The notes under the pieces: model-generated
What the model saw: the letters and a program-made list of their open reading frames with translations, nothing else
Database searches by the model: none
What the model was told of the DNA's origin: nothing
Virus record (IMG/VR): IMGVR_UViG_3300027857_000485
Coordinates: 1 to 62,156 of that record
Strand: one strand, 5' to 3'
Source: a virus
Taxonomy: Duplodnaviria > Caudoviricetes
Length of the DNA stretch: 62,156 bases
In this document: positions 14,061 through 60,288 of the stretch, piece after piece
How positions within the stretch are numbered: the first letter of the stretch is position 1
Layout: the number at the start of each line of letters is the position of its first letter
Made by a program: the position numbers and the translations under genes

Positions 14061-14420
14061 ATGAGGTTTCGGCTGATCATGGTCAGCGGGTGCGCGATGC
14101 TCTCCGCATGCGCCGGCGCCGGTTTGCTCGGCAATAAGCCTGAGGATGCCGGAGCGTTTCCCGCGTCATATGAAGAGGTAATTCGCGGGCGCCTCGCGAC
14201 GACCCTTAAAGATCCCTATTCGGCCCAGGTCGAAATAGGAAGGCCCAGCCTCGGGCAATGCCAGCGAGGCATCTATGGCACATTTCACGGCTGGGTGGTG
14301 CCGGTCACCGTCAATGCCAAGAATGGCTTCGGCGCATATACCGGCTACCAAACTACCTATGCCTGGTTCGCCGATGGCCTTCTCGTGAGGGAGTCTGGCA
14401 GCCCGACGCTTTGCCCCTGA
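14061..14420 (+). CDS. Lipoprotein, possible superinfection exclusion factor
   Basis: Lipobox LSAC; LKDPYSA...VNAKNGFGAYTG motif; located in the immunity region. Confidence 0.75.
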   Translation: MRFRLIMVSGCAMLSACAGAGLLGNKPEDAGAFPASYEEVIRGRLATTLKDPYSAQVEIGRPSLGQCQRGIYGTFHGWVVPVTVNAKNGFGAYTGYQTTYAWFADGLLVRESGSPTLCP

Positions 14421-15324: not shown

Positions 15325-16257
15325 TTGGGAGTTACTGATATTCCTCGCAATTCGCTCAAGAACTGGGATGACATCCGCCTGCTCCTCGCGGTAGCAGAGT
15401 GCGGAGGCATTTCCGGCGCGGCCGACGAATTGCAGCTCAAGAAGGACACCGTGATGCGGCGTCTGGACGATCTGGAAGACCTGGTCGGTCGCCGGCTTTT
15501 CCGTCGCCTGCAGCGCCGTGGTTCGGTTCCGACGGCTGCGTGCGACCTCCTGCTCGAAAGAGCGCGGGCTGTGAGGGAGGCGATCGGCAGCTTTGACCAG
15601 TCCATGGCGGCAATTCGCGCGCTCGACCCCGTCGTCAGCGTCAGCGCGCCGCCCGGCGTCCTGCATTTCACGCTCGTTCCTGCGCTTTTGAAGTTGAGCA
15701 AAACGCTCCAGCCCTTCGACCTGGCGCCGAGCAGCTATCCGCTGCCCGCCATGACCTTCAGCACGGAAGGCGATGCGGATGTATCGGTGACGCTGACGTC
15801 GACCGGCGATATCCCTGGCCTCAAGGGCGACATCACCGTGCGCCGCGTCGGCACCATGCGGTTCGCTCCATTCGCGCCCAGGGCATCGGCCGGAGTGGCC
15901 AGGGTTCATAAATTTCGGGATCTGCGCGATCACGGCCTGTTTCAGCGGACCGACTATGCCACGGTGCCGAGCATGGCTGCCTGGAATGATCTGTGTCTGG
16001 ATAGCGCCAGCCGGGCAGAGTTCATCAACTCGGTCGATATGTATTCGGCATTCAAGCAGGGTGACAGCGTCAGCATCTTCCCCAGCTATTCGAGCATGTA
16101 TGACCCCGAGGCCGTGCGCCTCGAGCTGGACGACGAGCCGGAAATCAGTCTGTCGGTTTGGATGTCGTCGCGCCGAGATACCTTGAAGGAGCCGGCGATC
16201 CGGACCGTCTTCGATGCGGTAGCCGGTCTCTTTGCGACATCCCCTTGGTTTTCATAG
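15325..16257 (+). CDS. LysR-type transcriptional regulator with divergent effector domain
   Basis: NWDDIRLLLAVAECGGISGAADEL....TVMRRL..LE..VG.RLF.R HTH; about 310 aa; start codon uncertain. Confidence 0.88.
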   Translation: MGVTDIPRNSLKNWDDIRLLLAVAECGGISGAADELQLKKDTVMRRLDDLEDLVGRRLFRRLQRRGSVPTAACDLLLERARAVREAIGSFDQSMAAIRALDPVVSVSAPPGVLHFTLVPALLKLSKTLQPFDLAPSSYPLPAMTFSTEGDADVSVTLTSTGDIPGLKGDITVRRVGTMRFAPFAPRASAGVARVHKFRDLRDHGLFQRTDYATVPSMAAWNDLCLDSASRAEFINSVDMYSAFKQGDSVSIFPSYSSMYDPEAVRLELDDEPEISLSVWMSSRRDTLKEPAIRTVFDAVAGLFATSPWFS

Positions 16258-17231: not shown

Positions 17232-17875
17232 TGGCTGTGCCGACGATTCGCCGATACGGCACGAATACGTTGAGCGGCGAACGCGGAATCCACCTCCGCG
17301 CCGCTCGCAATGCCATCGCCCCTTCGGCTTTCACCGCCGGTCGCATTGCCTTTCTTCCGCGTCGCCATGTCGAACTCTCCGCATCGTTGATCCATGAGCG
17401 GAAAGCTACCCCGCAGAGCTCGGAACTGTCGTTCACCCTGGGAGGAACTTCGGTTCCTCTGACGGAGGCCGACATCGACGAAATCTTCCTGCCGGTGCTG
17501 CGCGAGCTGCCGGTGAAGGCGCTGGCCGCCATGACCGGCCTGTCCGAGCGCGCGATCGTGAAGCTGCGCAATCGGGACGGGCGCCCGAGCCTCGCCACCG
17601 CGCTCAACCTGGCGCTGGCCGACGCCGCCACCATGACGCGGCTCGAAAGCCGCCTTCGCGGGCGCAGCGCGCTTCTGAAGCAACAGATCGCGCAGACCGA
17701 TCTCGAAATTGCGCTGCTCCAAGCCAAGCGAAAGGAATTGCTCGATGCGTCGCGTCATGGCCGCCCGGATCAGCGGGGCACTCCTTTGGCTGAGCGTCAG
17801 GTTCAACCGGGCATCCGATCGGCTGAACGCCTGGGCGGACTGGTGGCTCGACTGGGGCGCGGAGTGACGAAATGA
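17231..17875 (+). CDS. CII-position HTH regulator with coiled coil
   Basis: VKALAAMTGLSERAIVKLRN HTH; position after cro. Confidence 0.6.
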   Translation: MAVPTIRRYGTNTLSGERGIHLRAARNAIAPSAFTAGRIAFLPRRHVELSASLIHERKATPQSSELSFTLGGTSVPLTEADIDEIFLPVLRELPVKALAAMTGLSERAIVKLRNRDGRPSLATALNLALADAATMTRLESRLRGRSALLKQQIAQTDLEIALLQAKRKELLDASRHGRPDQRGTPLAERQVQPGIRSAERLGGLVARLGRGVTK

Positions 17876-18339
17876 AGATCGGCGCCGCCCAGATCCGCGA
17901 GGCCCGCGGCCAGGACTTCATCCAGGCCGCCCATCTGATCTCCGACGCGCACCGCGCCGCCGGCACGCTCGATGAGCATTACGAGCCTTGGGCCGTCGAG
18001 GGCCGGCTGAGCGACCTGCGCATTGCCAAGGGCATCCTGCTGGTCGCCGACATCGAAGGCGGCATCGTCGCCTGCGGCGGCATCGTTCCCGCCAGCTTCG
18101 CGCGCCATACCTGGACACTCTGCCTGGGCGCGACCCGTCCCGATCTGCAGGGCCACGGCCTCGGCCACCAACTGGTGACACGCCGCCTCGACATCGCCGC
18201 CCGCGAAGGTGCTGGCATCGTGCTGGTCAGCAGCGTCAACCCGGCGCGCTGGGCGCGGTACGGCTTCAAGCAGCAGTTCGTCAACCCGGTGACTGGCGCG
18301 CATCTGATGGCGCTCCGGTTCGATAATGGGAGGCATTGA
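17872..18339 (+). CDS. GNAT family N-acetyltransferase
   Basis: Acetyl-CoA motif PDLQGHGLGHQL; WARYGF. Confidence 0.85.
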   Translation: MKIGAAQIREARGQDFIQAAHLISDAHRAAGTLDEHYEPWAVEGRLSDLRIAKGILLVADIEGGIVACGGIVPASFARHTWTLCLGATRPDLQGHGLGHQLVTRRLDIAAREGAGIVLVSSVNPARWARYGFKQQFVNPVTGAHLMALRFDNGRH

Positions 18340-42812: not shown

Positions 42813-44249
42813 ATGTCCTTCAGCAACACTTCGCAGACCCAATTCCGCTACGCCGTCGAGGCGACGCAGAACCAGATCCCCGCGGTCGCGTTCCAGAATA
42901 TCACCGCCAAGAGTGGCGCGCTGGAAGCCAATCAGACCTTCACCGTGAGCCAGGGCATCCGCACCGATCGCACCGTGCAGGACAATATCCTGACCGACCG
43001 CAAGCCGGGCGGAACGCTGGTCTATGAATTCGCCTATGGGGTCGCAGATCCGATCCTGGCGGCGACCCTTCAGGACGCGGCGACCTGGAACCAGACGACC
43101 AATTTCTCGAATGTGGCCGTTACCGCCGGCACCCCGAACGTCTTCACCGTGCCCTCGGGCGGCGCGGCGGTTCTGGCCAATATGCTGCTCTATGCCTCGG
43201 GCTTCACCAACTCGGGCAATGACGGTGTGTTCAAGGCCTCGTCCTCGACAGGGACCACCATCACCACCGCAACGGCGCCCAGCACGGCGGAAACCGCCGG
43301 CGCGGGCAAGACGCTGAAGGTGATCGGCTACGAGGGCGCTTCCGGCGACATCACCGCGACCTCGACCGGCCTGGCCAGCACCACGCTCGATTTCACCACG
43401 CTGGGCCTGTCGGTCGGGTTGGTGGTCAAGGTCGGCGGTTCGCAGGCGGCCAATCAGTTCGCCACCGCGGCCAATAACGACTATGTCCGCATCACTGGCA
43501 TCGCCGCACACGCGCTGACCTGCGACAACCTGCCCACCGGCTGGACCACCGACGCGGGCGCGGGAAAAGCCATCCGCCTGCTGTGGGGAGACACCATCGC
43601 CAATGGCGTGACGCGCAACAGCTTCACCGTCGAGGAAGACCACCCAGACATCAGCTTCACCCGCGAATTCACCGGGCATTATCCGGACCAGTTCCAGCTG
43701 AAGATGACGCCCGGCCAGATCCTCGAGGCGACCACGACCTGGAAGGGCATGAGCGTTTCCACCGGCACCGCGACCGCCAGCACCGGCACGCCTATCGCGG
43801 CGCCGAACAACAGCATCATGAACGCGGTGACCAGCGTGGTCCGCATCAACGAGGCCGGCGTCGCGTCCGGCAAGATGAGCGACGCCACCCTGATGATCAA
43901 GAACAACCTGGGCGACGTTATGGCGCTGGGCGTGCTGGGCGATGCGGACGTCCGCGACGGCCAATTCAATGCCACCCTGCAGTTCGGCATCTATATGTCC
44001 GCGACCCAGGGCCAGAGCATCTATTCGAAGTTCCTGGCCGGTACGCAGTCCAGCCTATGGTTCGTCCTGAAGGACGCCGCCGGGAATGCCTACGCGGTCG
44101 ATATGCCGGCGGGCCGGTTCACCGATGCCAAGACCCCCGTCTCAGGCATCAACCAGGACTACAAGCTGACCGGCACTTTCACCACCCAGTACGACAGCGT
44201 TTCCGGCAAGCAGATGCGCATCAACCGCATCGCCTCCTACGGCGCGTGA
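42813..44249 (+). CDS. Major tail tube protein with inserted beta domain
   Basis: RYAVE.T, SFTVE, NNL motifs; Thr-rich; precedes the chaperone gene. Confidence 0.82.
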   Translation: MSFSNTSQTQFRYAVEATQNQIPAVAFQNITAKSGALEANQTFTVSQGIRTDRTVQDNILTDRKPGGTLVYEFAYGVADPILAATLQDAATWNQTTNFSNVAVTAGTPNVFTVPSGGAAVLANMLLYASGFTNSGNDGVFKASSSTGTTITTATAPSTAETAGAGKTLKVIGYEGASGDITATSTGLASTTLDFTTLGLSVGLVVKVGGSQAANQFATAANNDYVRITGIAAHALTCDNLPTGWTTDAGAGKAIRLLWGDTIANGVTRNSFTVEEDHPDISFTREFTGHYPDQFQLKMTPGQILEATTTWKGMSVSTGTATASTGTPIAAPNNSIMNAVTSVVRINEAGVASGKMSDATLMIKNNLGDVMALGVLGDADVRDGQFNATLQFGIYMSATQGQSIYSKFLAGTQSSLWFVLKDAAGNAYAVDMPAGRFTDAKTPVSGINQDYKLTGTFTTQYDSVSGKQMRINRIASYGA

Positions 44250-48100: not shown

Positions 48101-50489
48101 CGGTTCGGGCGGCGCGAGCATTGCTGCCATCCCCGGCATCGGCTGGATGATCGCCGGCACCGCCGCGAGCACCTATATCGGCGCTGAGTTCGGGCAGGCG
48201 AACAAAAGCAGCAGCCCGATCGAGAGGTACCTGGAAGGCGACGCGATCGGCGGAGAAGTGTCGGGGCTATCGGCGCTATTCCCGTATCTTTTCACGGGAC
48301 ACCCGACCGTCGGCCCTGACAGCGACGCCTATTCCTCGTTCGCGAATGGGCAGCTTAGCGTTGCTGGCTCGGCCTCGGACAATGGCGGGAGCGTAAGCGA
48401 CGCGACCAAGCTGCTGAACGACTCCATTTCGTCCTTGAACTCGACGACGGCAGCGCTCGGCCTGACCATCAATGGCCTCGGCAATATCGAGGTCGGGACC
48501 TTCAAGGGCCAGTATTACGTCAAGCAGCCTGGCGTCGGCGGTGGCCCGGGTGTGGGCGACTATTCTTCCTATGCGACGGAAGACGAGGCCGTAATCGCCT
48601 ATCTCAAAGAGGCGCTCACCAGCGGCTCCGTGACGGGCCTGAACGCGAACGGCCAATCGGCCCTGAAGAACAGCACCGCAACGGATGCGGCGACTTTCGA
48701 GGCCGATCTCCAATTCGGCCAGGATTTCGATGCGGCGATCAACGCCATGAAATCCGGCGTAACCGATTATACCCAAGCCGCCGAGACGGCGGCCGAGACA
48801 ACGGCCAGCCAGCTGACGACGTCCGTCGAAAACTTCAACGCGAAGGCGAAGGAGCTTGGCCTCGATACGCAGGCTGCGGCGGATGCCACGAAATCGGCCG
48901 TCGAGAGCTTCCTCGGGCTGACGACGTCGCAGCCCGTCAGCCAGCTTGAGCAGAACGTCGAAACCCTCTACGGAAAGCTCGAAGGCGTCTCCGGTCTTCT
49001 GTCTGAGGTGGGGATCAGCCAGGCCGACGCGACAGAGAAGGTCAAGGAACAGGTTGAGCAGATGCTGGGCATCACCCAGGCGGCTCCAGCCATGGGCACC
49101 TTCGCCACCGAAATGGCGAGCATCAAGCAGACCTTCAGTGATCTGGCGCCGATCGCCGATAAGCTGGGCATCTCCGCCCAGGACATGGCGACCGGGCTTT
49201 CGAATGCCGAACAGCAGATTACCCAGGCCGCGAACGACAACATCCAGTCTCAGCTCGACCAGCTGACGGGCGGAATCGGCACGAGCCTTCAGAGTCTCGT
49301 GACGACGTTTCAATCCACCTTCGCCGATATCCAGGCGGTGGGCGGAAACCTGGCGAATGCCCAAGAACTGATGGCGCTCGACATCGCCAATCTCTACAAG
49401 CCGGAAGTTCAGGCGGCCATCCAGGGCGTCACGACGGCCTACAACAATCAGATTACCGTCGAGCAGAACCTGGCGAGTCAGTCTCTGAAGACGTCGCAGG
49501 ACCTCGCGACGTTCCTGGCGAGCATGGGCGCCGGCAGCTTGTCCGATGGCGACCCGCTGTCTCAGCTCCAGGCCGCAAAAGCCGCCTTCGACCAGGCCGT
49601 GCAGCAGTCCTCTTCGTCAGACCCGACGGTGGCTGCGAACGCCCAGGGACAGCTGACCAGCCTTGCGCAGCAATACCTGACCGCCAGCAAGTCCTACAAC
49701 GCTTCCGGTTCCGGGTATGTCTCGGACTATGACTATGTCCAGCAGCAGCTGCAGGAGGTCGAGAAGTCGACCGCGGATCAGGCTTCGACGGCCACGCAAC
49801 AGGTCACGCTGCTTCAGCAGCAGCTCGACGCCGCCACGGGCACCCAGACCAACACGCTGACCATCGCCCAGGCTGTGGAGAACCTGAACACGCTGATGGC
49901 GCAGGTGAACGCGACGATCGCGAGCAGCATTGCCTCGGCTGGCGGTGGGTCATATTCCGGCGTGGTGACGCCGAACGGAACGTCCTCGACGGGCGTTTCC
50001 TACGGCGTGACGCCGCCGCCTCAGCCCAATATGGCGGCGGCCATCAACGCGATCGGCCAGGACTATACGAGCCTGCTTGGCCGCACCGGGACGCAGTCGG
50101 ACTTTGCCTATTACCTCAACGAGGTGCAGAACGGCGTCAGCCTCGACCAGATCGCGACGCAGTTCATGAACTCGCCGGAATATCTGGCCAAGCACAGCCA
50201 TGCGAATGGCGGTCTTGCCTCGGGCTGGTCGAAAGTCGGCGAGCGCGGCGAGGAATGGATGTATGTGCCGCCGTCGAGCGGTGCGATGGTCTACCCCCAC
50301 GGCACCGGGGGGCCCTCCAATGACAATGGCACCACGGCGGTAGTGCAGACTCTGCGCGCCGAGATGGCGAGCCTTCGTCAGGTGGTGGCGCAGGTCGGCC
50401 AGCAGCATGCCGAACTGCTCCGTGTCGCCAATGGCTATGCCGCGACCCAGGCCCACGCCGCCGATCGCGCTGCGTCCAGGCCGCGCTGA
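45123..50489 (+). CDS. Tape measure protein
   Basis: About 1790 aa, Ala/Gln-rich helical, lambda-H-like N-terminal block, HANGG...VGERGEE near the C-terminus. Confidence 0.92.
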   Translation: MSDIVLSLGIDAGDAATGADAFMQQYARLKAAISDVTSARAASQQAVTQEAAATTTAAGAFEQEAQKRIQLNEMIKNMVIVRGQEQAAIDAAISRTGALNQVGDAAVGINQRFAASVAQLNAELTGGASAASSHADATTRMGSASTNAAAAQQGLSVGTAGVTREIIVLGREIASGDFSRIPGSLLVLTNRMGGLNLGTLGAVAAFGALAAAMAYPVIHAANMDQELRSLNAQLQITGNTAQVTAQQIMAMANAISPSTSASRLDIMGAAGKIASDNVIAPNLGVDQLQKLTDAAVSFAQVTGQQVAPATKTLTDALDGGVTSLAKLNEQFPIFTTAELQNLQAMGQHGQQAEALAIEIQKIDDYFHNAAQNGMSQTTKALNELGAAWTHLMDEMAQSGSVQGALKSFTSLANILASLGGSTSAASALDQSQMASLQTKIQTAMGQAGQGGVTGFVGGQMLDSLVQQEISLQAQMGARSAPAGISDLAGLMPSFSVAGGTTSSGPASGGDPRAAEHLANQQIVDDATLVAAAYQKTGVAQQLAIAQARDFAGAQDTVSQQEQSQAKFLADSIVIMAQHTAAIEASNRAVQQQVDDASALAEAWNKSTQAGVLAEAAQKALNVARQNDPTAATASKKQVDDQLSIAYDDLNAKAGQQLQILQAQRDASQALVDVAGNSELTTYTQITEQVLAQYANQLAIAEVEQERTGDGTDLAQVQDQITQSIQAQWDIHQNGLAVALKNELALSQDQLTAAQADLEAGSKKLATSKEEQAVQAEIVKLKQQGLDINSDDAQKILANVRATQQIKDEQQAITDQYRQQQEEVKKLADGITRDMSAGLVQVFQSGGSGWDKMIKSWHTSVDTFIANIISQFAETQIVLPIIESATGISASSTGTQGTGGVLSSLFSTASTGSSVSGLLGGPTIGSSLGITGNGGFLAGASAYLFGGAGATAGGSTVGAGTIGTLALSDGTVVPIVSQGAEIGAVSGGESAGLLGSGGASIAAIPGIGWMIAGTAASTYIGAEFGQANKSSSPIERYLEGDAIGGEVSGLSALFPYLFTGHPTVGPDSDAYSSFANGQLSVAGSASDNGGSVSDATKLLNDSISSLNSTTAALGLTINGLGNIEVGTFKGQYYVKQPGVGGGPGVGDYSSYATEDEAVIAYLKEALTSGSVTGLNANGQSALKNSTATDAATFEADLQFGQDFDAAINAMKSGVTDYTQAAETAAETTASQLTTSVENFNAKAKELGLDTQAAADATKSAVESFLGLTTSQPVSQLEQNVETLYGKLEGVSGLLSEVGISQADATEKVKEQVEQMLGITQAAPAMGTFATEMASIKQTFSDLAPIADKLGISAQDMATGLSNAEQQITQAANDNIQSQLDQLTGGIGTSLQSLVTTFQSTFADIQAVGGNLANAQELMALDIANLYKPEVQAAIQGVTTAYNNQITVEQNLASQSLKTSQDLATFLASMGAGSLSDGDPLSQLQAAKAAFDQAVQQSSSSDPTVAANAQGQLTSLAQQYLTASKSYNASGSGYVSDYDYVQQQLQEVEKSTADQASTATQQVTLLQQQLDAATGTQTNTLTIAQAVENLNTLMAQVNATIASSIASAGGGSYSGVVTPNGTSSTGVSYGVTPPPQPNMAAAINAIGQDYTSLLGRTGTQSDFAYYLNEVQNGVSLDQIATQFMNSPEYLAKHSHANGGLASGWSKVGERGEEWMYVPPSSGAMVYPHGTGGPSNDNGTTAVVQTLRAEMASLRQVVAQVGQQHAELLRVANGYAATQAHAADRAASRPR

Positions 50490-52177
50490 TGTCGTCGCAG
50501 ACCTTCTACCTGGTCGAGATCGATTGCATCGATCCTAACAGCCTCCAGTTGACCACGCTGCGGTTTTCGACGGCGCAGGACTTCATGACGGGTCCGCACG
50601 ATGTGCCGCCCAACACGCCATATCGCGCGCTCATCAACAGCGTCGGCAATTTCGAGCGGCATTGCTGGCAGCGTGATACGACGCGAGGTCTGAGCGATAT
50701 CGGCTTCGGCAAGACCGTCATCGACAACAGCGATCATTCGCTCGATCCCTATAAGCTGTTCGGCTTCGACGGTCAGGGGTTCCGGATATATAAGGGCGCG
50801 CTGAACACCAGCACATTCCCGCCGTCCTATCCGTCCTATCCGACCGGCTTCATGCTGATGTTCGCCGGCACGATGCAGGCTGCGAGCTTCACCTACACCA
50901 CGCTCGAAATTCTCGTCCGCGACCGCCTGGCCGAGATTTATGCGCTGCCGATCCAGGCTGTGACCTATGGCGGTACGAACGTGCTACCGGCGGGCTTCGA
51001 CGGTGTCGCCGCGGACCTTCAGGGCAAGTTCAAGCCGATCCTGCTGGGCGCGGCCTTCAACATGCCGGTGCCGTGCGTCAACACATCGAAGCTGACGTAT
51101 CAGATCACCGATCGCACCAATATCACTATCGGCGCGGTGACCATCAACGCGGTCTATGACAAGGGCGTCGTGCTCACCCGCGGCACGAGCTTCGCCACCG
51201 TGGCGCTGCTGCAGGCTTCAACGCCGACTGCCGGAACCTACAATTACTGCGACGATCCTACTTTCGGCGCCTTCATCCAATTGGGCTCGCAGCCGGCTGG
51301 GCAGCTGACGGTCGATGCCCAGGAAGGAACGACGGCCAGTAACACCATCGCGCAGATCGTCACCCGCATCCTGACGGGCCCAGGCGGTCAGCCGTCGAGC
51401 CAGATCACCGGTTCTGCGGCGCTCGACAGCCTGATCTCCGCGCAGACTGGGCGCTGGATCGACACCGGCGGGGCCGCTATCGGCGACATCGTTGATGAGT
51501 TTCTCCAGGGCGGGAACAGCTTCCTGACGACGACCCGGGCCGGACAATGGCTATTCGGTCGGCTGTCCGCCCCAAGTGGCCCCACGGTGCTCACGATCAC
51601 CGCAGCCGACGTGAAAGACCCGACCAGCGGCATCACCATCGTTCAATCCAACGACCTCGGAACCGATGCGCCGACGGTCAATGGCAACACGCCCAGCGTC
51701 TCGGTGCCGCTATGGCAGGTGATCATGAATTACCAGCTGAACAACCAGGTTCAGTCTGCCACCGACATCGCGGGGTCCGCGACCCTGACCCGCGTTGGCT
51801 TTGTGCTTCAGCAATACCGGCAGGCCGCCGCCAGCAATGCCGCCGTGCTCAAGGTTCATGCGCTGGCTGCCCTGGCGACCTTCACCAGCCTGTTCGTCGC
51901 TCTGGCCGACGCCCTTGCCGAGGCGCAGCGGCAGCTGGCCCTGCGCAGCGTCTTCCGCGAAGTGGTCGAGGTGCTGGTCGATCCGGCCTTCGCCGCGCCG
52001 GTGGAGCTGGGCTCGACGGTGGCGCTGAACATCGCGCGCTTCGACTGGCAGACGGTGCAGAACATCGGCGGCAACCAGACACAGACAGTCGGCAAGAACT
52101 TTGTCTGCATCGGCATGGTCGAAAACTTCGGTGATTATGCGACCGCCGGCCAAACCACTCTCGTCCTCTGGGGATAA
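50489..52177 (+). CDS. Tail tip/hub protein
   Basis: TGATG-coupled to the tape measure gene; KPILLG..FNMP, VYDKG motifs; ends LWG. Confidence 0.75.
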   Translation: MSSQTFYLVEIDCIDPNSLQLTTLRFSTAQDFMTGPHDVPPNTPYRALINSVGNFERHCWQRDTTRGLSDIGFGKTVIDNSDHSLDPYKLFGFDGQGFRIYKGALNTSTFPPSYPSYPTGFMLMFAGTMQAASFTYTTLEILVRDRLAEIYALPIQAVTYGGTNVLPAGFDGVAADLQGKFKPILLGAAFNMPVPCVNTSKLTYQITDRTNITIGAVTINAVYDKGVVLTRGTSFATVALLQASTPTAGTYNYCDDPTFGAFIQLGSQPAGQLTVDAQEGTTASNTIAQIVTRILTGPGGQPSSQITGSAALDSLISAQTGRWIDTGGAAIGDIVDEFLQGGNSFLTTTRAGQWLFGRLSAPSGPTVLTITAADVKDPTSGITIVQSNDLGTDAPTVNGNTPSVSVPLWQVIMNYQLNNQVQSATDIAGSATLTRVGFVLQQYRQAAASNAAVLKVHALAALATFTSLFVALADALAEAQRQLALRSVFREVVEVLVDPAFAAPVELGSTVALNIARFDWQTVQNIGGNQTQTVGKNFVCIGMVENFGDYATAGQTTLVLWG

Positions 52178-52181
52178 TCAA

Positions 52182-52646
52182 ATGATGAAGAAGGCATTTC
52201 TGGCCGCATGCCTGGCGGCGGCGCTCGTGCTTGGGCAAATGGCCGAAGCGACCTCGCTCTGCAGCGTCGCCGTGACCACGGCGCAGACCGGCGTCGCGCA
52301 GACCGCCGTCAGCGGATTCGGCACGCCGAGCAGCATCACCATCCAGGGTCGTTTCACCTACGTCGCCTCGTCAGCGACCTCGGCGGATGTCTATGTGCAA
52401 TCGACGGTCGACGGCACGAACTGGATCGACATCGCCGATTTCCATTGGACGACCGCGTCTCTTTCGCAGGTCGTCAATGTGACGAACGCGGCCCTGACGA
52501 CCCCGACCACCATCTCGGACGGAGGCTTGGCCAGCAATACCATCTTGCAGGGCGTGCTCGGGGCGCAATATCGCTGCAAGGTGACCAGCGTCGGCACCTA
52601 TGGCGCCGGCACGGTCATCGCGGTCGACGTCTACGCCCGGTACTGA
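52182..52646 (+). CDS. Beta-rich tail-module protein with a signal peptide
   Basis: MMKKAFLAACLAAALVLGQMAEA|; DVYVQSTVDGTNWIDIA motif. Confidence 0.7.
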   Translation: MMKKAFLAACLAAALVLGQMAEATSLCSVAVTTAQTGVAQTAVSGFGTPSSITIQGRFTYVASSATSADVYVQSTVDGTNWIDIADFHWTTASLSQVVNVTNAALTTPTTISDGGLASNTILQGVLGAQYRCKVTSVGTYGAGTVIAVDVYARY

Positions 52647-52651
52647 CCGGC

Positions 52652-53533
52652 ATGGCGCCGAACCCCAATATCCTCATCGGATTCCCAAACCTCAGCGATG
52701 TCGATTTCTGGACGCCGAACTTCGTTCCGGGGGTTGGCAATTGGATGCCGGGCGCCCCGCTGACGAACCTGCAAATCCCTGAACTGGCCTTCAAGGCTCG
52801 CTCGGTCAATTGCACGCAAGATGCGTCGCAGTTCTTGATCGACCTGACGACGCAGCAATCCATCCTGGCCGTGGCGATTCCGCGCCACAATCTGACCCTC
52901 AATGCCACGTTGACGGTCAAGCTTTATACCGACGCTGCCCTGACGCAGTTGGTGGCGCAGGCGACGGCCGCAGTCGCCACCACCTATGCCTGGGGCGCGC
53001 TGCCTTACGGCAGCTCATCCTGGTTTGACGGTAAGATCACCGCCGAAGCTGCTCGATTTTCCCCGCAGCCCGCCTATGTGATCTTCGATACGCCGCAGAT
53101 CGCCCGATATGTGCTCGTGCAGATCAATGATACAGCCAATCCGGCGAATTTCATCGAGCTCAATCGCTTGGTGATCTGTCCAGGCTATCAGCCGACGCTC
53201 AACATCGTTTATGGCACCCAATTCGGGGTTACCGATCCGTCGGTTCTGACGCGCACCCTCGGAGGGAAGCGCTGCATTGATCCGCGGCCTAAATATCGAA
53301 CCATCGTCGCAAGCATCGACTATCTGCCCCAAAACGAGGCGTTCGCCAATATCTTCGACATGATGCTGAGGCTGGGCATTTCCCAGCAGTGCTTCGTATC
53401 CGCGATGCCCGCGGACAGCGTCAACGCCGCTCGCGTCAGCTTCCTCGCCGCAATGTCCCAACTCGACCCCCTCACGGCCGCTGCTTTTGGCGTTTCCGGT
53501 GTCGGGCTCCATTTCGAAGAGATCGTAGCATGA
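52652..53533 (+). CDS. Distal tail/baseplate-like protein
   Basis: PLTNLQ, HNLT..A, ARYVLVQIND..NP..FIELNRL motifs. Confidence 0.7.
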   Translation: MAPNPNILIGFPNLSDVDFWTPNFVPGVGNWMPGAPLTNLQIPELAFKARSVNCTQDASQFLIDLTTQQSILAVAIPRHNLTLNATLTVKLYTDAALTQLVAQATAAVATTYAWGALPYGSSSWFDGKITAEAARFSPQPAYVIFDTPQIARYVLVQINDTANPANFIELNRLVICPGYQPTLNIVYGTQFGVTDPSVLTRTLGGKRCIDPRPKYRTIVASIDYLPQNEAFANIFDMMLRLGISQQCFVSAMPADSVNAARVSFLAAMSQLDPLTAAAFGVSGVGLHFEEIVA

Positions 53534-55029
53534 AGCAATTCATCCGCTCCGCCGCCCTCGCGCTCGCCGCCATTCTGGCGCTGGTGTCGGGGGGCGCCAA
53601 GGCCAGCACAAGCTATACCTGCAACGGCAATACTTATGTGATGCCGGACCAGTTCAACGGCTACGGCTATGTGACGGCGTGGCCGGCTCAGATGAACGAC
53701 TGCAACACGCAGCTGCTTTCCTATCTGAATTCCGCCCTGGCGGCCCAGAACGCCGCGCAAGCTGCGGCCGCTGCTTCGGCCACTTCCGCCTCGACCCAGG
53801 GCATGAGCACGACGAGCCTGACGATCGGTCTCGGCACGCAGTCTCCGACGATCCAGGCCAGCAAGAATTTCACGCCCGGAATGCCGGTGCGGATTGCCGA
53901 TCAGGCTGCGCCGACCGCCAATTATATGGACGGCGTCGTCAGCGCCTATAATTCGTCGACCGGCGCGATGACGGTCACGGTTACCTCTGTGTCTGGATCG
54001 GGCACCAAGACCGCCTGGAACGTCTTCTTGGTCGGCCAGCGCGGGCCGCCCTCGACGACGATGCCGCGCTCGGATCATACCGGCGCCTATAGCATTGCCG
54101 TGGGTGACGGGACATCGCTGATCAGGGCGACCAGCGGAACCTGGGCGATGACGCTCCCGGCGCCTTCGAGCGCTGGCGCGGGCTGGTGGGCGATCGTCCA
54201 GAACACCGGCACCGGCACCGTCACGCTAACGGCCTCGACCGGCACGGTGGACGGCCTCGCGTCGTATCCGATGTATCCGAACGAGTCGAGATTGGTTCAA
54301 ACCGACGGCTCGACCTTCGTTTCGGTGATCCTCTCGCCGTTCGATATGATCGTGACGTCTTCGGTCACGTTCATCGTGCCGCCCGGGTACAACAATTTCG
54401 ACGGGATACTTACCAGCGGGGGCGCCGGCGGCATCTCGGGTACGGGGGGCTCGAATTCGTATGGAGGTTCCTCAGGCGGTGGTGCGGCGCCGTTCGAATT
54501 GTCGTCTGCCGCTCTCGGCGGTCCTGGCGCGTCGGTCACCATCACCATCGCCGCGCAGGCATCCGCGGGAAATAACGGGAACGGTTCCTCCTTTGGTTCC
54601 ATCTTCAGCGTCACAGGCGGATCTGTTGGGCTTTCCAATGTGTCCGGCGGTTCCACCGGATTGGCCGGCGGCGGCATACAGGATGTTGTCGATAGCGCCT
54701 GCCTTTATCGCTCCACAACAGGCATTAGTCCGGGTGGTACCGGCCCCCGCTGCCTGTACGCTGGCGGATATGGTGGCTCGACATCGACAAACGCTACTTC
54801 TGGGCTTTCAGGTTCTCCCTCTGTCTATGGTGGCGGCGGTTCGGGCGGCGTAGGTACATCGTCCGTCGGCGCGTCGGCGGGAAGCCTTTTTGGAGGCGCT
54901 GCCGGCGCAAGTGTCCTATCGGGTACGGCGGCAGACGGGACGGCGCCAGCCGGGGCGGGGGGTGCCTCTGGCAATGGCACCGGCGGCCATGGCGCCCGCG
55001 GACAACTCAGCATTCATGGAGCGATCTGA
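53530..55029 (+). CDS. Glycine-rich tail fibre protein with an N-terminal signal peptide
   Basis: ATGA-coupled start MKQFIRSAALALAAILALVSGGAKA|; STTSLTIG...YMDGVVSAYNSSTG fibre domain; Gly-rich C-terminus. Confidence 0.75.
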   Translation: MKQFIRSAALALAAILALVSGGAKASTSYTCNGNTYVMPDQFNGYGYVTAWPAQMNDCNTQLLSYLNSALAAQNAAQAAAAASATSASTQGMSTTSLTIGLGTQSPTIQASKNFTPGMPVRIADQAAPTANYMDGVVSAYNSSTGAMTVTVTSVSGSGTKTAWNVFLVGQRGPPSTTMPRSDHTGAYSIAVGDGTSLIRATSGTWAMTLPAPSSAGAGWWAIVQNTGTGTVTLTASTGTVDGLASYPMYPNESRLVQTDGSTFVSVILSPFDMIVTSSVTFIVPPGYNNFDGILTSGGAGGISGTGGSNSYGGSSGGGAAPFELSSAALGGPGASVTITIAAQASAGNNGNGSSFGSIFSVTGGSVGLSNVSGGSTGLAGGGIQDVVDSACLYRSTTGISPGGTGPRCLYAGGYGGSTSTNATSGLSGSPSVYGGGGSGGVGTSSVGASAGSLFGGAAGASVLSGTAADGTAPAGAGGASGNGTGGHGARGQLSIHGAI

Positions 55030-55030
55030 T

Positions 55031-55618
55031 ATGCGAGCACTTCTTCTCGCGGCCCTCCTATGGCTTGCATCCGAGGCGGCCGGCGCTGCCAGTTATGCCC
55101 TGATCGATCAGACGCAGGGCGTCGTCGTCAACATCATCGAGTGGGACGGCGTCGCGCCGATCCTCCCGCCTGCTGGGCAGTCGATCATGCAGGCGCCCGA
55201 CGGTGTCGGCATCGGCTGGTTTTATGGTAATGGCCATTTCTCGCCGCCGGCTGCACCGCTGCCTGATCCCGCTGTCCAGATGCAAGCGCTGCTGGTCGCT
55301 GGCTTGACGGTCCAGTGCGCGGCCGGCGCGACGGTATGCACCTCCGCGATCGAGGGAACCTACTCGGTCGATGAAAACTCCGAGCTGCACATCAATAATG
55401 TCTATTCGTCGATCAAGGGCGGTGATGGACTGCCTGGCGGTGGCCAGACCTTCTATTTCAAGGACATTCATGGCATTGGTCATCCGTTCACCGCCGAGCA
55501 GTTCCTTGAATTTGCGCCCGCTGCCCGAGACTTTTACTACGGGGCCAGCGTTGCCGAAGGGCTTTTGCAGGCCGGGCAAACCGCGTCCTGGCCGGCGACA
55601 GCCGTACAGCTTCCCTGA
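55031..55618 (+). CDS. Tail-fibre-associated protein (DUF4376-like) with a signal peptide
   Basis: MRALLLAALLWLASEAAGA|; YALI...VVNIIEWDG; FKD....FTAEQF. Confidence 0.65.
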   Translation: MRALLLAALLWLASEAAGAASYALIDQTQGVVVNIIEWDGVAPILPPAGQSIMQAPDGVGIGWFYGNGHFSPPAAPLPDPAVQMQALLVAGLTVQCAAGATVCTSAIEGTYSVDENSELHINNVYSSIKGGDGLPGGGQTFYFKDIHGIGHPFTAEQFLEFAPAARDFYYGASVAEGLLQAGQTASWPATAVQLP

Positions 55619-55693
55619 CCCACCACCATGCCTTCCTCAACATCGTCGCCCGACTGCGGCGCGCGAGCCCATAGAAACGAAAGAAACGATCAA

Positions 55694-56026
55694 ATGGACA
55701 ACCCGCAGCAATATGTCGACGAGGCGACATTTAAATGGACAGTGGGTGGCGTCGTCGCCCTGTGCTTCGGAGCGATGGGGGTGATCTGGAAGAGACTTAA
55801 CGGGCTGGAGGAGAAGGGAGGGCAACGCGACGATGCGAACGTCAAGGCGGCGAAGGAAGCCGACGACACCCTTTGGGAGGCCCACAACGTCCAGGTCCGC
55901 GATTTCCAGTCCTTCAAGGATGACACGCTCAAGACGCTCCGCGACGTTCCGACACGCGCCGATCTAGACGCGATGGAAAAGCGCCTCATGGAAGCGATCC
56001 GCCATCAGGCGGCGCGCACAGCATGA
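55694..56026 (+). CDS. Single-TM coiled-coil lysis-cassette protein (holin/antiholin-like)
   Basis: N-terminal TM; precedes the endolysin gene. Confidence 0.55.
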   Translation: MDNPQQYVDEATFKWTVGGVVALCFGAMGVIWKRLNGLEEKGGQRDDANVKAAKEADDTLWEAHNVQVRDFQSFKDDTLKTLRDVPTRADLDAMEKRLMEAIRHQAARTA

Positions 56027-56511
56027 CCGGCATCAACCCGGGCCAGCTGCTGACCTTCGTCACCCGGCCCGCGCTCGAGATCATCGGCCTCGGCGGCATG
56101 GCGGCCGAGCAGATCATGACCGGCATCTCGCTGCAGGAGTCGAACAGCGGCTATTACCTGCATCAGCTCGGCAACGGACCGGCGATCGGTCTAGATGAGG
56201 TCGAGCGGGCGACACATGACGACCTCTGGACCAATTTTCTGCCATGCCATCCGGACCTGAAGGCCAAACTGTCCACCCTGCTGATCGAAGGGCTGCCGAA
56301 GGCCGACCAGATGGCTGGCAACCTCTATTACGCGACGGCCATGGCGCGGCTGGTGCTGTACCGGCGCCCCGAGCCGCTGCCGGCGGCCGGAGACCTCGCC
56401 GGGCAGGCGGCCTTCTATAAGCAGTTCTACAACACCGCCGGTGGCGCCGCCTCCGTCGACCAGTACATCGCCAACTGGAACGCGGCCAAGGCCTCCAGCC
56501 TCTGGGCCTGA
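56023..56511 (+). CDS. Endolysin (lysozyme-like fold)
   Basis: QES..YLHQL.NGPA.G...E.ATHDD, NL.YATAMAR..Y, YKQFYNT..G motifs. Confidence 0.8.
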   Translation: MTGINPGQLLTFVTRPALEIIGLGGMAAEQIMTGISLQESNSGYYLHQLGNGPAIGLDEVERATHDDLWTNFLPCHPDLKAKLSTLLIEGLPKADQMAGNLYYATAMARLVLYRRPEPLPAAGDLAGQAAFYKQFYNTAGGAASVDQYIANWNAAKASSLWA

Positions 56512-56579
56512 TCCGGACCTGACCGGCGCACAGGCGCCAATTCCATTACATCCCCGAACACCAACCAACGGAGGCCGTC

Positions 56580-56900
56580 ATGGTCGCGAAGTGGCTGCAA
56601 CAGCGCTGGTCCGAGCGGACCACGCATATCGGTATCGCCATCATCATCCTGGTGATCGCGCTCGTCATCGACGGGACGCTGCCGGACTGGCACCGCGCCG
56701 TGCTGCCGGTCGCCATCAGCCTGATCCTCATCCTGGTGCCCGACACGCTGGCGAGCATCGCGCAGTTCGCGCCGCTCATTCCTGGCGGCCAGGCCATCGC
56801 CGCGCTGGCGAACGCCGCCGCCCAGGCATCCGAAGCGCCGAACCTCAACCCCGATCCCGCCGCCTCTGCGGCACCTCAGCCGGCCCAGGAGGGCCAATGA
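56580..56900 (+). CDS. Holin-like membrane protein
   Basis: Two TM segments; RBS GGAGG. Confidence 0.6.
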   Translation: MVAKWLQQRWSERTTHIGIAIIILVIALVIDGTLPDWHRAVLPVAISLILILVPDTLASIAQFAPLIPGGQAIAALANAAAQASEAPNLNPDPAASAAPQPAQEGQ

Positions 56901-57271
56901 TCATGCGCAATCCCACCAACATCTTTTTCGTCGGCCTGCTGGCCGCTTCCATCTTCGCGCTGTCGGCCTGCTCGACCCAGCAGACGCAGACCGCGCTCAC
57001 CGTTGCCTGCACCGCCGACCAGCTGGCGCCCTCGATCGTGAAGGCCGGCACCGCCATCGCCCTCATCTCGGACCCGGCCGCCGTGCAGGACGTGACCGCC
57101 GCCAACGCCGCCGATGCTGCCGTGCATCCGGTGGTTCAGGCCGCCTGCGCCGCCGCGCTGCCGGGCTCTGTCCCGGTGGCCGGGACCGTCAATACGGTCT
57201 CCGTGCCGGTGGCGCCGCCCGTCAGCCAGACCACGGCGGTGATCTTGCCGGTGTCGGCGCCCCCGAAGTGA
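56897..57271 (+). CDS. Lipoprotein (spanin-like position)
   Basis: Lipobox LSAC; ATGA-coupled. Confidence 0.6.
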   Translation: MIMRNPTNIFFVGLLAASIFALSACSTQQTQTALTVACTADQLAPSIVKAGTAIALISDPAAVQDVTAANAADAAVHPVVQAACAAALPGSVPVAGTVNTVSVPVAPPVSQTTAVILPVSAPPK

Positions 57272-57453
57272 TCCGCGTCATCCCGCTGGCCGCGCTCCTG
57301 CTGCTGGCGGGATGCGGCCAAATCGGCGCCCAGATCGCCGTTGCCGGGCTGTCCTATGTGGCCTCGGTCAACAATCTGGGCGCCGAGACGCTGAAGTTCA
57401 TTGACGACAAGGACACCAAGGCCTGCCGGACCGCTCCAGCCCCGGCGCCGTGA
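57268..57453 (+). CDS. Small lipoprotein (o-spanin-like)
   Basis: Lipobox LAGC; Pro-rich end. Confidence 0.6.
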   Translation: MIRVIPLAALLLLAGCGQIGAQIAVAGLSYVASVNNLGAETLKFIDDKDTKACRTAPAPAP

Positions 57454-58385
57454 CCAACCCCATTTCTGTGAGGCAACCAATGCCCAAGCGCGTTTTGTCC
57501 GTCGATGGCGGCGGCAGCTATGGCCTTCTTCCCGCCCTCTGGCTGGCCGAAATCGAGAAGCGCACCGGCAAGCGCTGCGCCGATCTGTTCGATCTGATCG
57601 CCGGCACCAGCACCGGCGGGATCATCGCAAGCGGCCTATCCATCGGCTTGGCCGCCGCCAGCCTGGCGCTGCTCTACCACGACCACGGGTCCGAGATCTT
57701 CCGCGCGTCGCTCTGGAACAAGGCGAGGGGCCTGGACGGTCTCTCGGGTCCGAAATACAGCGCCGCGACCCTGGAGCGCTATCTGGCGCAGGCGCTGGGC
57801 GACAAGACACTGTCCGATGCCCAGACGCATCTGCTGGTGCCGACGACCCGGTGCGACAAGGAGGGTGGCCCGTTCTGGTTCAAGAGTTGGGAAGGTCCGA
57901 ACTTCCTGCTCCGCGACGTCGCCCGCGCCACCAGCGCCGCGCCGGTCTATTTCCCGCCGGCGGTAATCTCGCCGGTCGACGGCGAGCCCATGGTCTGTGT
58001 CGATGGCGGCATCCATGCGAACAGCCCTGAGGACTTCGCTGCTCTGCAGGCCTCCAAGCTCTGGCCCGGCGAGGAGATCATCGTCGTCTCGCTCGGCACC
58101 GGCTATGAGCCCGTCGATGTCGAGGCCAAGGCGGATTGGGGCGCTGCCGATTGGGTGATGGGCGGTCTGCTCGACCTGGTGATGATCTGCTCCGAAATCA
58201 ACGCGGCCACGCGCGGGCAGATGATCGACTATCGTCGCGCCCGGCTGGACGTCGAGATCGGCGGGAACATGGACGATGCCAGCGCCGCCAACATCTCGGC
58301 CATGACCAAGGCGGCGCAGAAGGTGATTGCCGGGGCGGATTTCGCCGCGATGTTGGACCTGCTGGCGGACAAGGTGTCGGCATGA
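57450..58385 (+). CDS. Patatin-like phospholipase
   Basis: DGGG oxyanion, GTSTG nucleophile, ATSAAP.YF and DGG motifs; start 57450 or 57480. Confidence 0.92.
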   Translation: MTNPISVRQPMPKRVLSVDGGGSYGLLPALWLAEIEKRTGKRCADLFDLIAGTSTGGIIASGLSIGLAAASLALLYHDHGSEIFRASLWNKARGLDGLSGPKYSAATLERYLAQALGDKTLSDAQTHLLVPTTRCDKEGGPFWFKSWEGPNFLLRDVARATSAAPVYFPPAVISPVDGEPMVCVDGGIHANSPEDFAALQASKLWPGEEIIVVSLGTGYEPVDVEAKADWGAADWVMGGLLDLVMICSEINAATRGQMIDYRRARLDVEIGGNMDDASAANISAMTKAAQKVIAGADFAAMLDLLADKVSA

Positions 58386-59219: not shown

Positions 59220-59423
59220 ATGCCGTTCGCGTGGCTCCGCTTTCAGCAGACCCTGGCGCTCGCCGCCTTCGTCGCCGGCTGCACCGTCGCCGAAATGCAG
59301 CTGCGCCTGATCGGTGCCGCCATCAGCCCGGCCGCGTCGATCCGCGCGCCCCGAATCCGCCTTGTTTCCAACCTGCATGGGATTGAGATAGATCCCGATT
59401 TCGTGAAGGATGCCAAGTCATGA
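59220..59423 (+). CDS. Small hypothetical protein
   Basis: Fills the gap; ATGA-coupled at the 3' end. Confidence 0.4.
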   Translation: MPFAWLRFQQTLALAAFVAGCTVAEMQLRLIGAAISPAASIRAPRIRLVSNLHGIEIDPDFVKDAKS

Positions 59424-59755
59424 AGACCATCCGCATTTTCTGCGCGCTGCTGCTCGGCGGCGCGCTGGGGTATGTTGCCCACGCCGACGACTATCATCAT
59501 CCGCCGACCGAGGGAGAGGTATCCGCCATCTGCTACGGCGGCGCTTTTACGAAAGCTGACCGGGAAACGGTCATGCCGCCGCCGCTGTCGTCACTCTCGG
59601 AGAAGAGCCGCTCCATCTGCGATTTCTATAAGGCGGCTGCCGAGGAGAAGGGTCGCCAGAAAGATGAGCGGCGCCGTCAGGAAGCTGACCGCGCGCTGGC
59701 GAAATCGATCGCGGCTTACAACCAAGCGCTTCTCGAATCGGAGGGGCCGAAATGA
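59420..59755 (+). CDS. Secreted hypothetical protein
   Basis: Signal peptide ending VAHA; 2 Cys in the mature part. Confidence 0.65.
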   Translation: MKTIRIFCALLLGGALGYVAHADDYHHPPTEGEVSAICYGGAFTKADRETVMPPPLSSLSEKSRSICDFYKAAAEEKGRQKDERRRQEADRALAKSIAAYNQALLESEGPK

Positions 59756-60222
59756 AGATCCTCACCTTCATTGCCGCGGCGCTGCTGGCCGGCGTCGCCC
59801 ATGCCGGCGATCTGCCCGATCCGACGCTCACGCCGGGCGCCACCAATCCCGAGCTGACGGCGGAAAAGCTGTGCGCCGCCGGCTTTACCACTAAGGACTA
59901 CCGCGCCACCACGCAGGCGACCAAGAACGCGGTCTATCGGGAATATGGAATGGCCGGCCCGAACCAGGGCTATTGCGTCGGCGACGGTGGTTGCGAGATC
60001 GACCACTTGATCAGCCTGGAAATCGGGGGCGCCGACGTGAAGGAGAACCTTTGGCCGCAGCCGTACTTCACCCAACCCTGGAACGCGCATCTCAAGGACA
60101 AGCTGGAGAACACCCTGCACCGGCTGGTGTGCGCCGGAACCCTGACGCTCGACCAGGCGCAGACCGCGATCCGGACCAACTGGATCGAGGCCTATAAGCA
60201 GTATGTCGGATCTCCGCCCTGA
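59752..60222 (+). CDS. Secreted HNH-type nuclease-like protein
   Basis: Signal peptide ending VAHA; LPDP.LTPGA, EIDHLISLEIGG....NLWPQ, KD.LEN.LH..VC. Confidence 0.8.
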   Translation: MKILTFIAAALLAGVAHAGDLPDPTLTPGATNPELTAEKLCAAGFTTKDYRATTQATKNAVYREYGMAGPNQGYCVGDGGCEIDHLISLEIGGADVKENLWPQPYFTQPWNAHLKDKLENTLHRLVCAGTLTLDQAQTAIRTNWIEAYKQYVGSPP

Positions 60223-60256: not shown

Positions 60257-60288
60257 AGCCCTCGACCTTAGCTGGTCGGGGGCTTTTT
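60257..60288 (+). terminator. Rho-independent terminator ending the late operon
   Basis: AGCCCTCGACC/GGTCGGGGGCT stem followed by a T run. Confidence 0.8.

Follow-up and report, generated by a model that had tools for sequence, protein, structure and literature searches.

Sec-type leaders predicted on the tail fibre and a fibre-assembly-like protein of an alphaproteobacterial siphovirus prophage

The stretch of DNA analysed here (the window) is a single IMG/VR provirus record of 62,156 bases (IMGVR_UViG_3300027857_000485), and the genes under study lie in the tail region of its late operon. On the 3' side of the tape measure gene they follow one another in the order 562-amino-acid (aa) tip protein, A (154 aa), B (293 aa), C (499 aa, the tail fibre) and D (195 aa, resembling tail-fibre assembly proteins). 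A first-pass annotation of the sequence had claimed that A, C and D, starting at 52182, 53530 and 55031, carry Sec signal peptides with AxA cleavage sites. Starts and N-termini were found as described there, and all three proteins passed the rule by which leaders were called in this work, an in-house one that takes into account the charge of the n-region, the presence of a hydrophobic segment free of charges, and whether positions −3 and −1 hold small residues. The features of the three genes are the following.

52182..52250, plus strand: Sec-type leader of A, 23 codons, predicted cut between AEA and T (sequence; in-house rule)
52251..52646, plus strand: mature A, a 131-aa predicted jelly-roll beta-sandwich (AlphaFold2 model; large unnamed phage family)
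53530..53604, plus strand: Sec-type leader of the fibre C, 25 codons, predicted cut between AKA and S (sequence; in-house rule)
53605..53760, plus strand: N-terminal fibre anchor of C, residues 26-77 (52% identity to the N-terminus of the leaderless L003/L088 fibre)
54394..55029, plus strand: glycine-rich distal domain of C, residues about 289-499, probable receptor-binding tip (Foldseek; PF21722 among relatives)
55031..55087, plus strand: Sec-type leader of D, 19 codons, predicted cut between AGA and A (sequence; in-house rule)
55088..55618, plus strand: mature D, an N-domain followed by a DUF4376-like domain, tail-fibre-assembly-like (phrog_14370, E 3.7e-6)

According to the rule, the leaders of A, C and D are all of the signal peptidase I type. 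That of A has KK in its n-region, a hydrophobic region at residues 5-17 and an AEA cut; in C the n-region contains K and R, the hydrophobic region spans residues 8-23 and the cut is AKA; in D they are R, residues 3-13 and AGA, respectively. Gene A starts at ATG 52182 (a second ATG is found at 52185), 4 nt past the stop of the gene for the 562-aa protein, and the N-terminus of its product is MMKKAFLAACLAAALVLGQMAEA, followed after the cut by TSLC. The ATG of C overlaps the stop codon of the B gene (ATGA) and gives the N-terminus MKQFIRSAALALAAILALVSGGAKA followed by STSY, and that of D is placed 1 nt past the stop of C, with GGAG 10 nt upstream, and gives MRALLLAALLWLASEAAGA followed by ASYA. 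The starts had been said to be backed by ATGA coupling or a Shine-Dalgarno sequence, and this was so for C, the only one with ATGA, and for D with its GGAG, while the Shine-Dalgarno sequences of A and C are weak. The rule called no leader in the tube protein, the tail chaperones, the tape measure, the 562-aa protein or B, in agreement with the earlier remark that the neighbouring hub and tail genes lack them.

As a control, the rule was applied to the whole window, where it fired on 17 of 1910 candidate starts, located in 13 of the 579 stop-to-stop frames of at least 60 codons. Three of these 13 frames are A, C and D, six others code for what are plausibly envelope or exported proteins (the lipoprotein at 14061, two further lipoproteins, a holin-like protein and the two small products of 59420 and 59752) and four look spurious. 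By this control, the leaders on A, C and D exceed chance. Other types of signal were discarded: a Tat signal because RR is present in none of the n-regions, and a lipoprotein signal because the lipobox rule was negative for the three proteins and positive for those at 56897 and 57268. The LAAC of A (residues 7-10) is too near the N-terminus for a lipobox and is not conserved (W in P0086).

It could be argued that the leaders are not used, either because translation starts downstream of them or because the N-termini stay uncleaved, the proteins being cytoplasmic or membrane-associated and the particle being assembled in the conventional way. We consider this very unlikely. The possibility comes from two in-frame internal starts, a GTG at codon 19 of C and an ATG at codon 20 of A, which could yield cytoplasmic forms, together with the weak Shine-Dalgarno sequences before these two genes and the in-house nature of the rule. 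Codons 2-45 of D include no ATG, GTG or TTG, so that a leaderless form is impossible and D must carry its leader, and the internal ATG of A is not conserved among its other leader-bearing relatives. A reading with dual initiation was dropped: A and C would permit it, D rules it out, and it is not conserved. Moreover, the three leaders show the full arrangement of n-, h- and c-regions with small −3 and −1 residues, and the same arrangement appears in about 17 of 150 representatives of the A family, directly before the conserved mature N-terminus. The G+C content at third codon positions of the leaders (0.74 in A, 0.92 in C and 0.58 in D) is also coding-like for A and C.

Alignment with homologues, which the first-pass annotation had proposed as a check, revealed that the leaders are specific to certain lineages. 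In the case of C, residue 2 of the leaderless fibre encoded at the same position in L003 and L088 aligns with residue 26, with 52% identity over 52 residues. Among 14 close homologues of A, five have a leader, four start with 'MT.LCSV...', one residue before the predicted cut of A and with Met replacing the −1 Ala, and the remaining five are leaderless too. At a wider scale, 80 viral A loci were kept out of 144 relatives; 65 of them are leaderless and begin at a conserved 'LL..ITTA' motif, and 15 bear a leader (L003, with a long n-region, L004, L007, L010, L014, L015, L016, L026, L041, L042, L053, L057, L062, L064 and L079), this count having been made by reading the listing because the rule misfires on that motif. 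The viral relatives of the D N-domain are leaderless in 3/3 cases, and L084 starts with 'MARYALVD' and L085 with 'MRYAVVKD', that is, one or two residues from the predicted cut of D between AGA and ASYALID. The single full-length relative of D (P0101) has a leader, and PF14301 is on its record. Judged by these alignments, the leaders are lineage-specific add-ons, as the leaderless relatives of A, C and D begin at the predicted cut or a few residues from it.

The description of the product of 53530 as a glycine-rich fibre was borne out by its mosaic build, its fold matches and its position. Residues 26-77, the anchor, are as in the L003 fibre, the middle part (residues 93-172) as in that of L005 and the glycine-rich tip as in 84 homologues. 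The anchor motif T.NG..Y...G[YF]GY is common to C, P0002, P0015, P0029, P0033, L005, L107 and L102. In the model of C (mean pLDDT 88.4), a hairpin at the N-terminus is followed by a helix of 37 residues, by beta domains and by the glycine-rich domain; with the latter, Foldseek returned Bxb1 9d93 chains Qa and Qb (E 2e-6 and 3e-6) and Pam3 7ypx_A (E 5.7e-6), with TM values by target of 0.41-0.49. PF21722 (Gly_rich_2) is recorded for many of the 84 homologues, and C itself scores 16.6 bits, below the gathering cut-off of 24.3. The gene order tape measure, 562-aa protein, A, B and C is kept in L003-L006, L088, L102, L107 and L113. Neither a paralogue of C nor any other fibre-like gene was present in the window. 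Searches of viral contigs and of metagenome contigs gave no relatives of C, and tblastn of A, B and C against 50,697 GenBank phage records had zero matches. On sequence and model grounds C is thus a virion-type tail fibre, and the only fibre gene of an otherwise complete siphovirus prophage. That the anchor has been retained beneath the leader argues that docking to the tail is still under selection.

The counts of cysteines in the mature proteins (2, 4 and 2 in A, C and D, respectively) were confirmed. Those of C are at positions 31, 58, 391 and 408, and Cys occurs at none of these positions in any of the 74 aligned relatives (0/74), 49 of which have Ser at 408. The fibre family has instead three conserved Cys columns, with Cys in 42/66, 53/68 and 44/71 leaderless members, and at all three columns Cys is absent from the leader-bearing fibres (3/3: window C, P0003 and P0012). 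A Fisher test on this loss (3/3 versus 12/72, p 0.007) was discounted because these three fibres cluster together on the tip-domain tree (a single change, with a support of 72), so the loss is one evolutionary event and not three. Their N-terminal parts, unaligned, look unrelated by eye. Taken together, the sequences suggest a lineage of fibre tips in which a leader is always present. C has a short insert, CLYRSTTGISPGGTGPRCLY, that is bordered by its two distal cysteines and opens and closes with the same CLY triplet (54700-54756, residues 391-409); the insert is missing in nearly all relatives and falls within a low-confidence stretch of the model (mature residues 370-377). As for A, both cysteines of its pair are kept in the five full-length leader-bearing members (5/5), and Val occupies the second site in four close leaderless ones, but covariation of leader and pair was rejected as it is not exclusive, leaderless L089 holding both cysteines. 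The proposed link between paired cysteines and leaders is supported in part, by the lineage-specific cysteines of C, the pair of A being found in a leaderless relative as well.

D had been described as DUF4376-like; its gene follows that of the fibre, and its match to PF14301 (DUF4376) is of 21.2 bits, below the cut-off of 25. Its models in the Atlas search resembled DUF4376 clusters (TM 0.62/0.66) and the Caudo_TAP tail-fibre-assembly cluster (TM 0.50/0.68). A tblastn search with D against 50,697 GenBank phage records gave eight weak matches, all of them in fibre genes of Pseudomonas phages. The 103-aa open reading frame (ORF) that follows the fibre gene of L003 was considered as a relative of D and rejected (E 0.17). 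D may therefore be said to resemble tail-fibre assembly proteins, the model matches being leads and not family membership.

The first-pass annotation had treated A, C and D as one tail-module set, which was not sustained. Of the 12 phages of the syntenic clade, five have a leader on A (the window, the L003 type, L004, L102 and L107) and, of the six with a readable fibre start, one has it on the fibre, namely the window. The A family resides mostly in head modules and its leaders occur independently of any fibre. Its size is of 1158 representative clusters at E<=1e-3 and 594 at 1e-10, and among its best 150 representatives leaders were recognised by eye in 17, an automatic rule of greater stringency flagging 12. 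Placed on a 130-member tree, the 15 rows with a leader imply eight changes, at least three of them forced by well-supported branches; on this tree, gain or loss of leaders took place three times or more within the family. Only in 12 related phages was the gene order 562-aa protein, A and B found, and A is at the same place in 12/12 syntenic relatives. Elsewhere, its relatives follow the major capsid gene and precede that of the head-tail adaptor (L007, L010, L013, L014, L016 and L020) or at other positions of the virion module (L019 and L049). A genome-wide tendency to export was rejected too, given that other signal-peptide-like ORFs amount to 3 in the 168.8 kb around leader-bearing A genes and to 16 in 750.4 kb in the comparison. 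Sequence comparison thus indicates that the leaders of C and D go together and that of A is separate.

The model of mature A was obtained with a mean pLDDT of 97.2, and the protein matches no Pfam, PHROG or NCBIfam family. VIA-align placed first the N-domain of XepA (Z 9.0), followed by the BPP-1 cement protein (Z 8.8), a Carin1 capsid chain (Z 8.0), the tip of the Bdellovibrio fibre Bd2133 (Z 7.8) and sugar-binding modules of the carbohydrate-binding-module type, all these values being near the background of 7-8 stated for the tool. Compared with jelly-roll cement proteins, the fold gives Z 7.1-8.8 and the gene is beside that of the major capsid protein in many relatives, but not in the window. 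A would be exported independently of the fibre, as a late-added decoration or a non-virion helper. Some members of the family are fused within longer proteins of 234-547 aa. In L003 (7824-8405) and L088 (2505-3140), a basic stretch of unusual length (as many as about 45 residues), conserved between both records, precedes the hydrophobic core and an AQA cut of A; the true start is uncertain there.

The window as a whole is a temperate siphovirus prophage of an alphaproteobacterium. DNA identical to it is carried by a contig (L087) of one alphaproteobacterial metagenome-assembled genome (MAG), and the host is therefore a diderm; it is a soil-type alphaproteobacterium, whose MAG has seven matches to the DsbA family (PF01323). 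The integrase gene (4-1275, minus strand) is followed by early and replication genes and then by a complete siphovirus late operon, which contains small and large terminase, portal, scaffold, major head protein, head closure and tail terminator genes and, for the tail, those of the tube (42813-44249), two tail chaperones and a tape measure of 1789 aa. Downstream of D come the lysis genes, a patatin-like gene and a few small genes. The remaining features of this part of the operon are these.

50489..52177, plus strand: 562-aa tail-tip protein without leader, directly after the tape measure gene; probable cytoplasmic tail-tip core (phrog_8917, E 1.3e-74)
52652..53533, plus strand: protein B, conserved 293-aa tail-tip protein without leader (phrog_8610, E 2.1e-37)
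55628..57453, plus strand: lysis cassette with a membrane protein, an endolysin-like protein, a holin-like protein and two lipoproteins (translations; putative functions)
60257..60284, plus strand: strong terminator-like hairpin closing the late operon (11-pair stem and T-run)

Relatives of the 562-aa protein, such as Caulobacter phage Sansa gp38 and EBPR siphovirus 2 gp72, are likewise encoded directly after the tape measure gene. In syntenic relatives the B gene is always the immediate upstream neighbour of the fibre gene, which makes B a candidate docking partner of C; its look-alikes in the Atlas are uncharacterised phage proteins, a minority of them with F5/8 type C domains. In the lysis cassette, 56023-56511 matches phrog_3108, transmembrane stretches were found at 56580 and lipoboxes at 56897 and 57268.

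The gaps between the genes of the 562-aa protein, A, B, C and D are of 4, 5, −4 and 1 nt, and the promoter scan of this stretch of the window detected no promoter-like site between the first of them and D. The sole plus-strand site (55371-55399) falls within D, and the two sites found in total compare with a shuffle mean of 2.1. This tight coupling within the late operon and the absence of promoters in the scan indicate that C, D and A are made with the tail and lysis proteins and not in the lysogen. Looked at as morons or lysogenic-conversion genes, A, C and D were found with neither their own promoter and terminator nor an insertion between conserved neighbours.

These data also bear on the idea that the prophage is decaying or domesticated, gives no infectious particles and has had its fibre and helper co-opted by the host as a secreted adhesin through the addition of leaders. 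There is a single instance of the arrangement, with the same DNA in one MAG and C in 1/101 related genomes, CheckV gives a completeness of 78%, and Bdellovibrio adhesins are phage-fibre-like proteins with signal peptides (PMC10769870, accessible text). We nevertheless regard it as unlikely. The integrase, replication, terminase, portal, scaffold, capsid, connector, tube, chaperone, tape measure, tip and lysis genes all have intact reading frames, translational coupling of the three genes persists within the late operon and none has a promoter to itself, and the anchor domain of the fibre has been kept.

Our best reading, to which we give a probability of a little over 40%, is that C and D undergo export and periplasmic maturation and that C docks on the tail at lysis. 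Host-recognition gear would then probably fold outside the cytoplasm, where the rest of the particle is built. In this scheme C and D would be synthesised late, together with the other products of the operon that includes the tail and lysis genes. Still unfolded, they would pass through SecYEG, and signal peptidase I would cleave them after AKA and AGA. In the periplasm, D would assist the trimerisation of C and the two lineage-specific cysteine pairs of C would be oxidised; in the cytoplasm, heads and fibreless tails would be assembled as usual. Once the inner membrane has been opened by the holin and lysis sets in, fibres from the periplasm could reach the tail tips and C could dock by its conserved N-terminal anchor, probably on B or the 562-aa protein. 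Export itself, the disulfides, the chaperone role of D and the docking at lysis are all steps that we infer. The presence of leaders on both the fibre and its putative helper is what a chaperone-client pair needs, and the seven DsbA-family matches of the host MAG and the leader-bearing structural proteins of Cellulophaga phage phi18:3 also count in favour of this reading. The endolysin-like protein showed no export signal by the in-house rule, so lysis probably needs a hole-forming holin. Large holin lesions would let particles enter the periplasm.

Several observations weigh against this reading. The evidence for the leaders is computational, comes from an in-house rule and concerns one uncultured provirus that, at 78% completeness, may not be viable, and A and C have the internal starts mentioned above. 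Among 84 other homologues of C only two, P0003 (from Paraburkholderia) and P0012, have leaders; the fibre is leaderless in 5/6 syntenic phages with a readable fibre start, and C was found in 1/101 related genomes, so that the C leader is unique in its clade and the case rests on one prophage. The loss of the conserved cysteines, being a single event on the tip tree, and the cysteine pair of leaderless L089 count in the same direction. The sister phages L003, L102 and L107 have a leader on A and none on the fibre, which speaks against a coordinated periplasmic module. Finally, siphoviruses can infect without side fibres, as laboratory lambda does, and being the only fibre gene therefore does not force C into the virion.

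Some of these points lead to an alternative in which C, D and A are exported late but remain outside the virion, as receptor-masking decoys or as envelope-binding helpers of lysis or egress, the particle adsorbing through the 562-aa and 293-aa proteins. As decoys, the secreted proteins would keep progeny or superinfecting phages from adhering to the dying cell or to debris left by it. We hold this to be the main rival, not much less likely than our best reading. It would fit with A and D flanking the fibre directly upstream of the lysis cassette, with leaders of the A family occurring alone in head modules (and with 3 other signal-peptide-like ORFs in 168.8 kb), with sister phages that would export A and keep their fibre cytoplasmic, with siphovirus fibres that can be dispensable and with the likeness of A to the N-domain of PBSX XepA (Z 9.0), an exported protein absent from particles as far as the accessible text goes (PMC6834076). 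The fibre itself fits less well, since C retains a tail-docking anchor with 52% identity to a leaderless virion-type fibre and the window offers no second, leaderless fibre gene for the particle. A decoy would not obviously require a co-exported assembly protein either, and leader-bearing structural proteins, annotated from mass spectrometry (MS/MS), exist in Cellulophaga phage phi18:3.

In textbooks, the assembly of tailed phages is wholly cytoplasmic. If periplasmic maturation of C and D is accepted, assembly could be proposed, tentatively, to span two compartments, with heads and tails in the cytoplasm and the fibre with a co-exported assembly protein in the periplasm, both being joined when the holin opens the membrane; the clade with the glycine-rich tip would be export-adapted, with free cysteines purged and paired ones gained, and would always have a Sec leader whatever its anchor. 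Periplasmic folding of the fibre would then add a final assembly step tied to lysis and explain how phages can use disulfide-stabilised receptor binders. To be expressed for engineering, host-range proteins would have to be exported or kept under oxidising conditions, along with the co-exported helper that belongs to them, and annotation pipelines that class phage proteins with signal peptides as non-structural would be affected. If the exported fibre were a decoy, it would be a new means of masking receptors, derived from an adhesin of the phage itself. In either case, the A family, with its 1158 representative clusters and no database name, deserves naming.

Other genes of the window were also noted. 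A patatin-like phospholipase (57450-58385, plus strand; PF01734, E 9e-24; phrog_25573) adjoins the lysis genes and may be an accessory of lysis or membrane attack. Ahead of the terminator at 60257, the late operon closes with two genes (59420-59755 and 59752-60222, plus strand) for small proteins of 111 and 156 aa, which have the Sec-type leaders MKTIRIFCALLLGGALGYVAHA and MKILTFIAAALLAGVAHA and match no Pfam, PHROG or NCBIfam family. In the early or lysogeny region, 14061-14420 (plus strand) encodes a lipoprotein with the lipobox LSAC (phrog_2320), a candidate for superinfection exclusion or conversion, and the early region also contains genes for a LysR-type regulator and a GNAT acetyltransferase (15325-16257 and 17872-18339, plus strand). 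The tube protein (42813-44249, plus strand) is long, 478 aa, and matches Phage_tube_2 only at residues 251-444, which leaves a large additional N-terminal part.

With respect to known systems, morons with signal peptides are found in tail regions, where lambda Lom and Bor, T5 Llp and Cor are exported and encoded beside tail or fibre genes; these belong to the outer membrane or are lipoproteins, bear no relation to parts of the virion and mostly have a promoter to themselves. C and D are unlike them in that the predicted exported proteins are a fibre and its putative helper, placed within the late operon. Our literature search, which included the accessible text of the RcGTA paper, in which SignalP had been run, found no description of Sec leaders on the fibres of tailed phages. 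The usual view, as given in the accessible part of a preprint, is that the P22 tailspike has no signal peptide since export is not needed.

The modular layout of C, with N-terminal anchor, stalk and tip, is that of the fibres of the Pam3, Bxb1 and Salmonella phage S16 gp38 type, and its best Foldseek matches are the Pam3 fibre (7YFW/7YPX) and Bxb1 gp33/gp29 (9D93), with E values of 2e-6 to 5e-5 and 17-24% identity. Domains of the Pam3 fibre, Bxb1 and S16 gp38 were grouped as glycine-rich polyproline II (PPII) helical bundles in a 2026 paper (PMC13243192, accessible text). C differs from those fibres, which have not been described with signal peptides, in its 25-residue Sec-type leader and in four cysteines absent from 74 relatives. 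D is like Tfa proteins (Caudo_TAP/DUF4376; PF14301, PF02413) in coming directly after the fibre gene, in its similar Atlas model and in its sub-threshold DUF4376 match, and unlike them in its Sec-type leader, in its three leaderless viral N-domain relatives (3/3) and in scoring below the Pfam cut-off; a chaperone role would be by analogy.

For A, the likeness to XepA (6I56) has an rmsd of 2.9 over 102 residues, but identity is 11%, XepA, from a Gram-positive defective phage, forms a pentamer of two-domain subunits and a Z of 9 is barely above the background. The gene of XepA lies between the tail fibre and lysis genes of PBSX, and its product is exported during phage development (PMC6834076, accessible text). 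Jelly-roll cement proteins give Z values of 8.8 for BPP-1 (3J4U chain H), 8.0 for Carin1, 7.3 for KHP40 and 7.1 for Pam1, and most genes of the A family are just after that of the major capsid protein; A is unlike them in its place in a tail-tip module and its leader, the Z values being middling, and capsid binding would be by analogy. The Bdellovibrio MAT fibres, trimeric adhesins similar to phage tail fibres and all with a signal peptide according to the accessible text (PMC10769870), include Bd2133, whose tip matches A at Z 7.8; they are adhesins of a cellular predator, encoded outside any phage virion operon. Finally, in the cultured Cellulophaga phage phi18:3 (NC_021794.1) the record annotates the consecutive products gp085, gp086 and gp087 as structural or tail proteins on the basis of MS/MS proteomics, and the N-terminus of each resembles a leader. 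The phage, a podovirus infecting Bacteroidota, is unrelated in sequence to A, C or D, and its record does not state whether the leaders are cleaved or used, but by analogy gp085-gp087 may be taken as one precedent for leader-bearing structural proteins.

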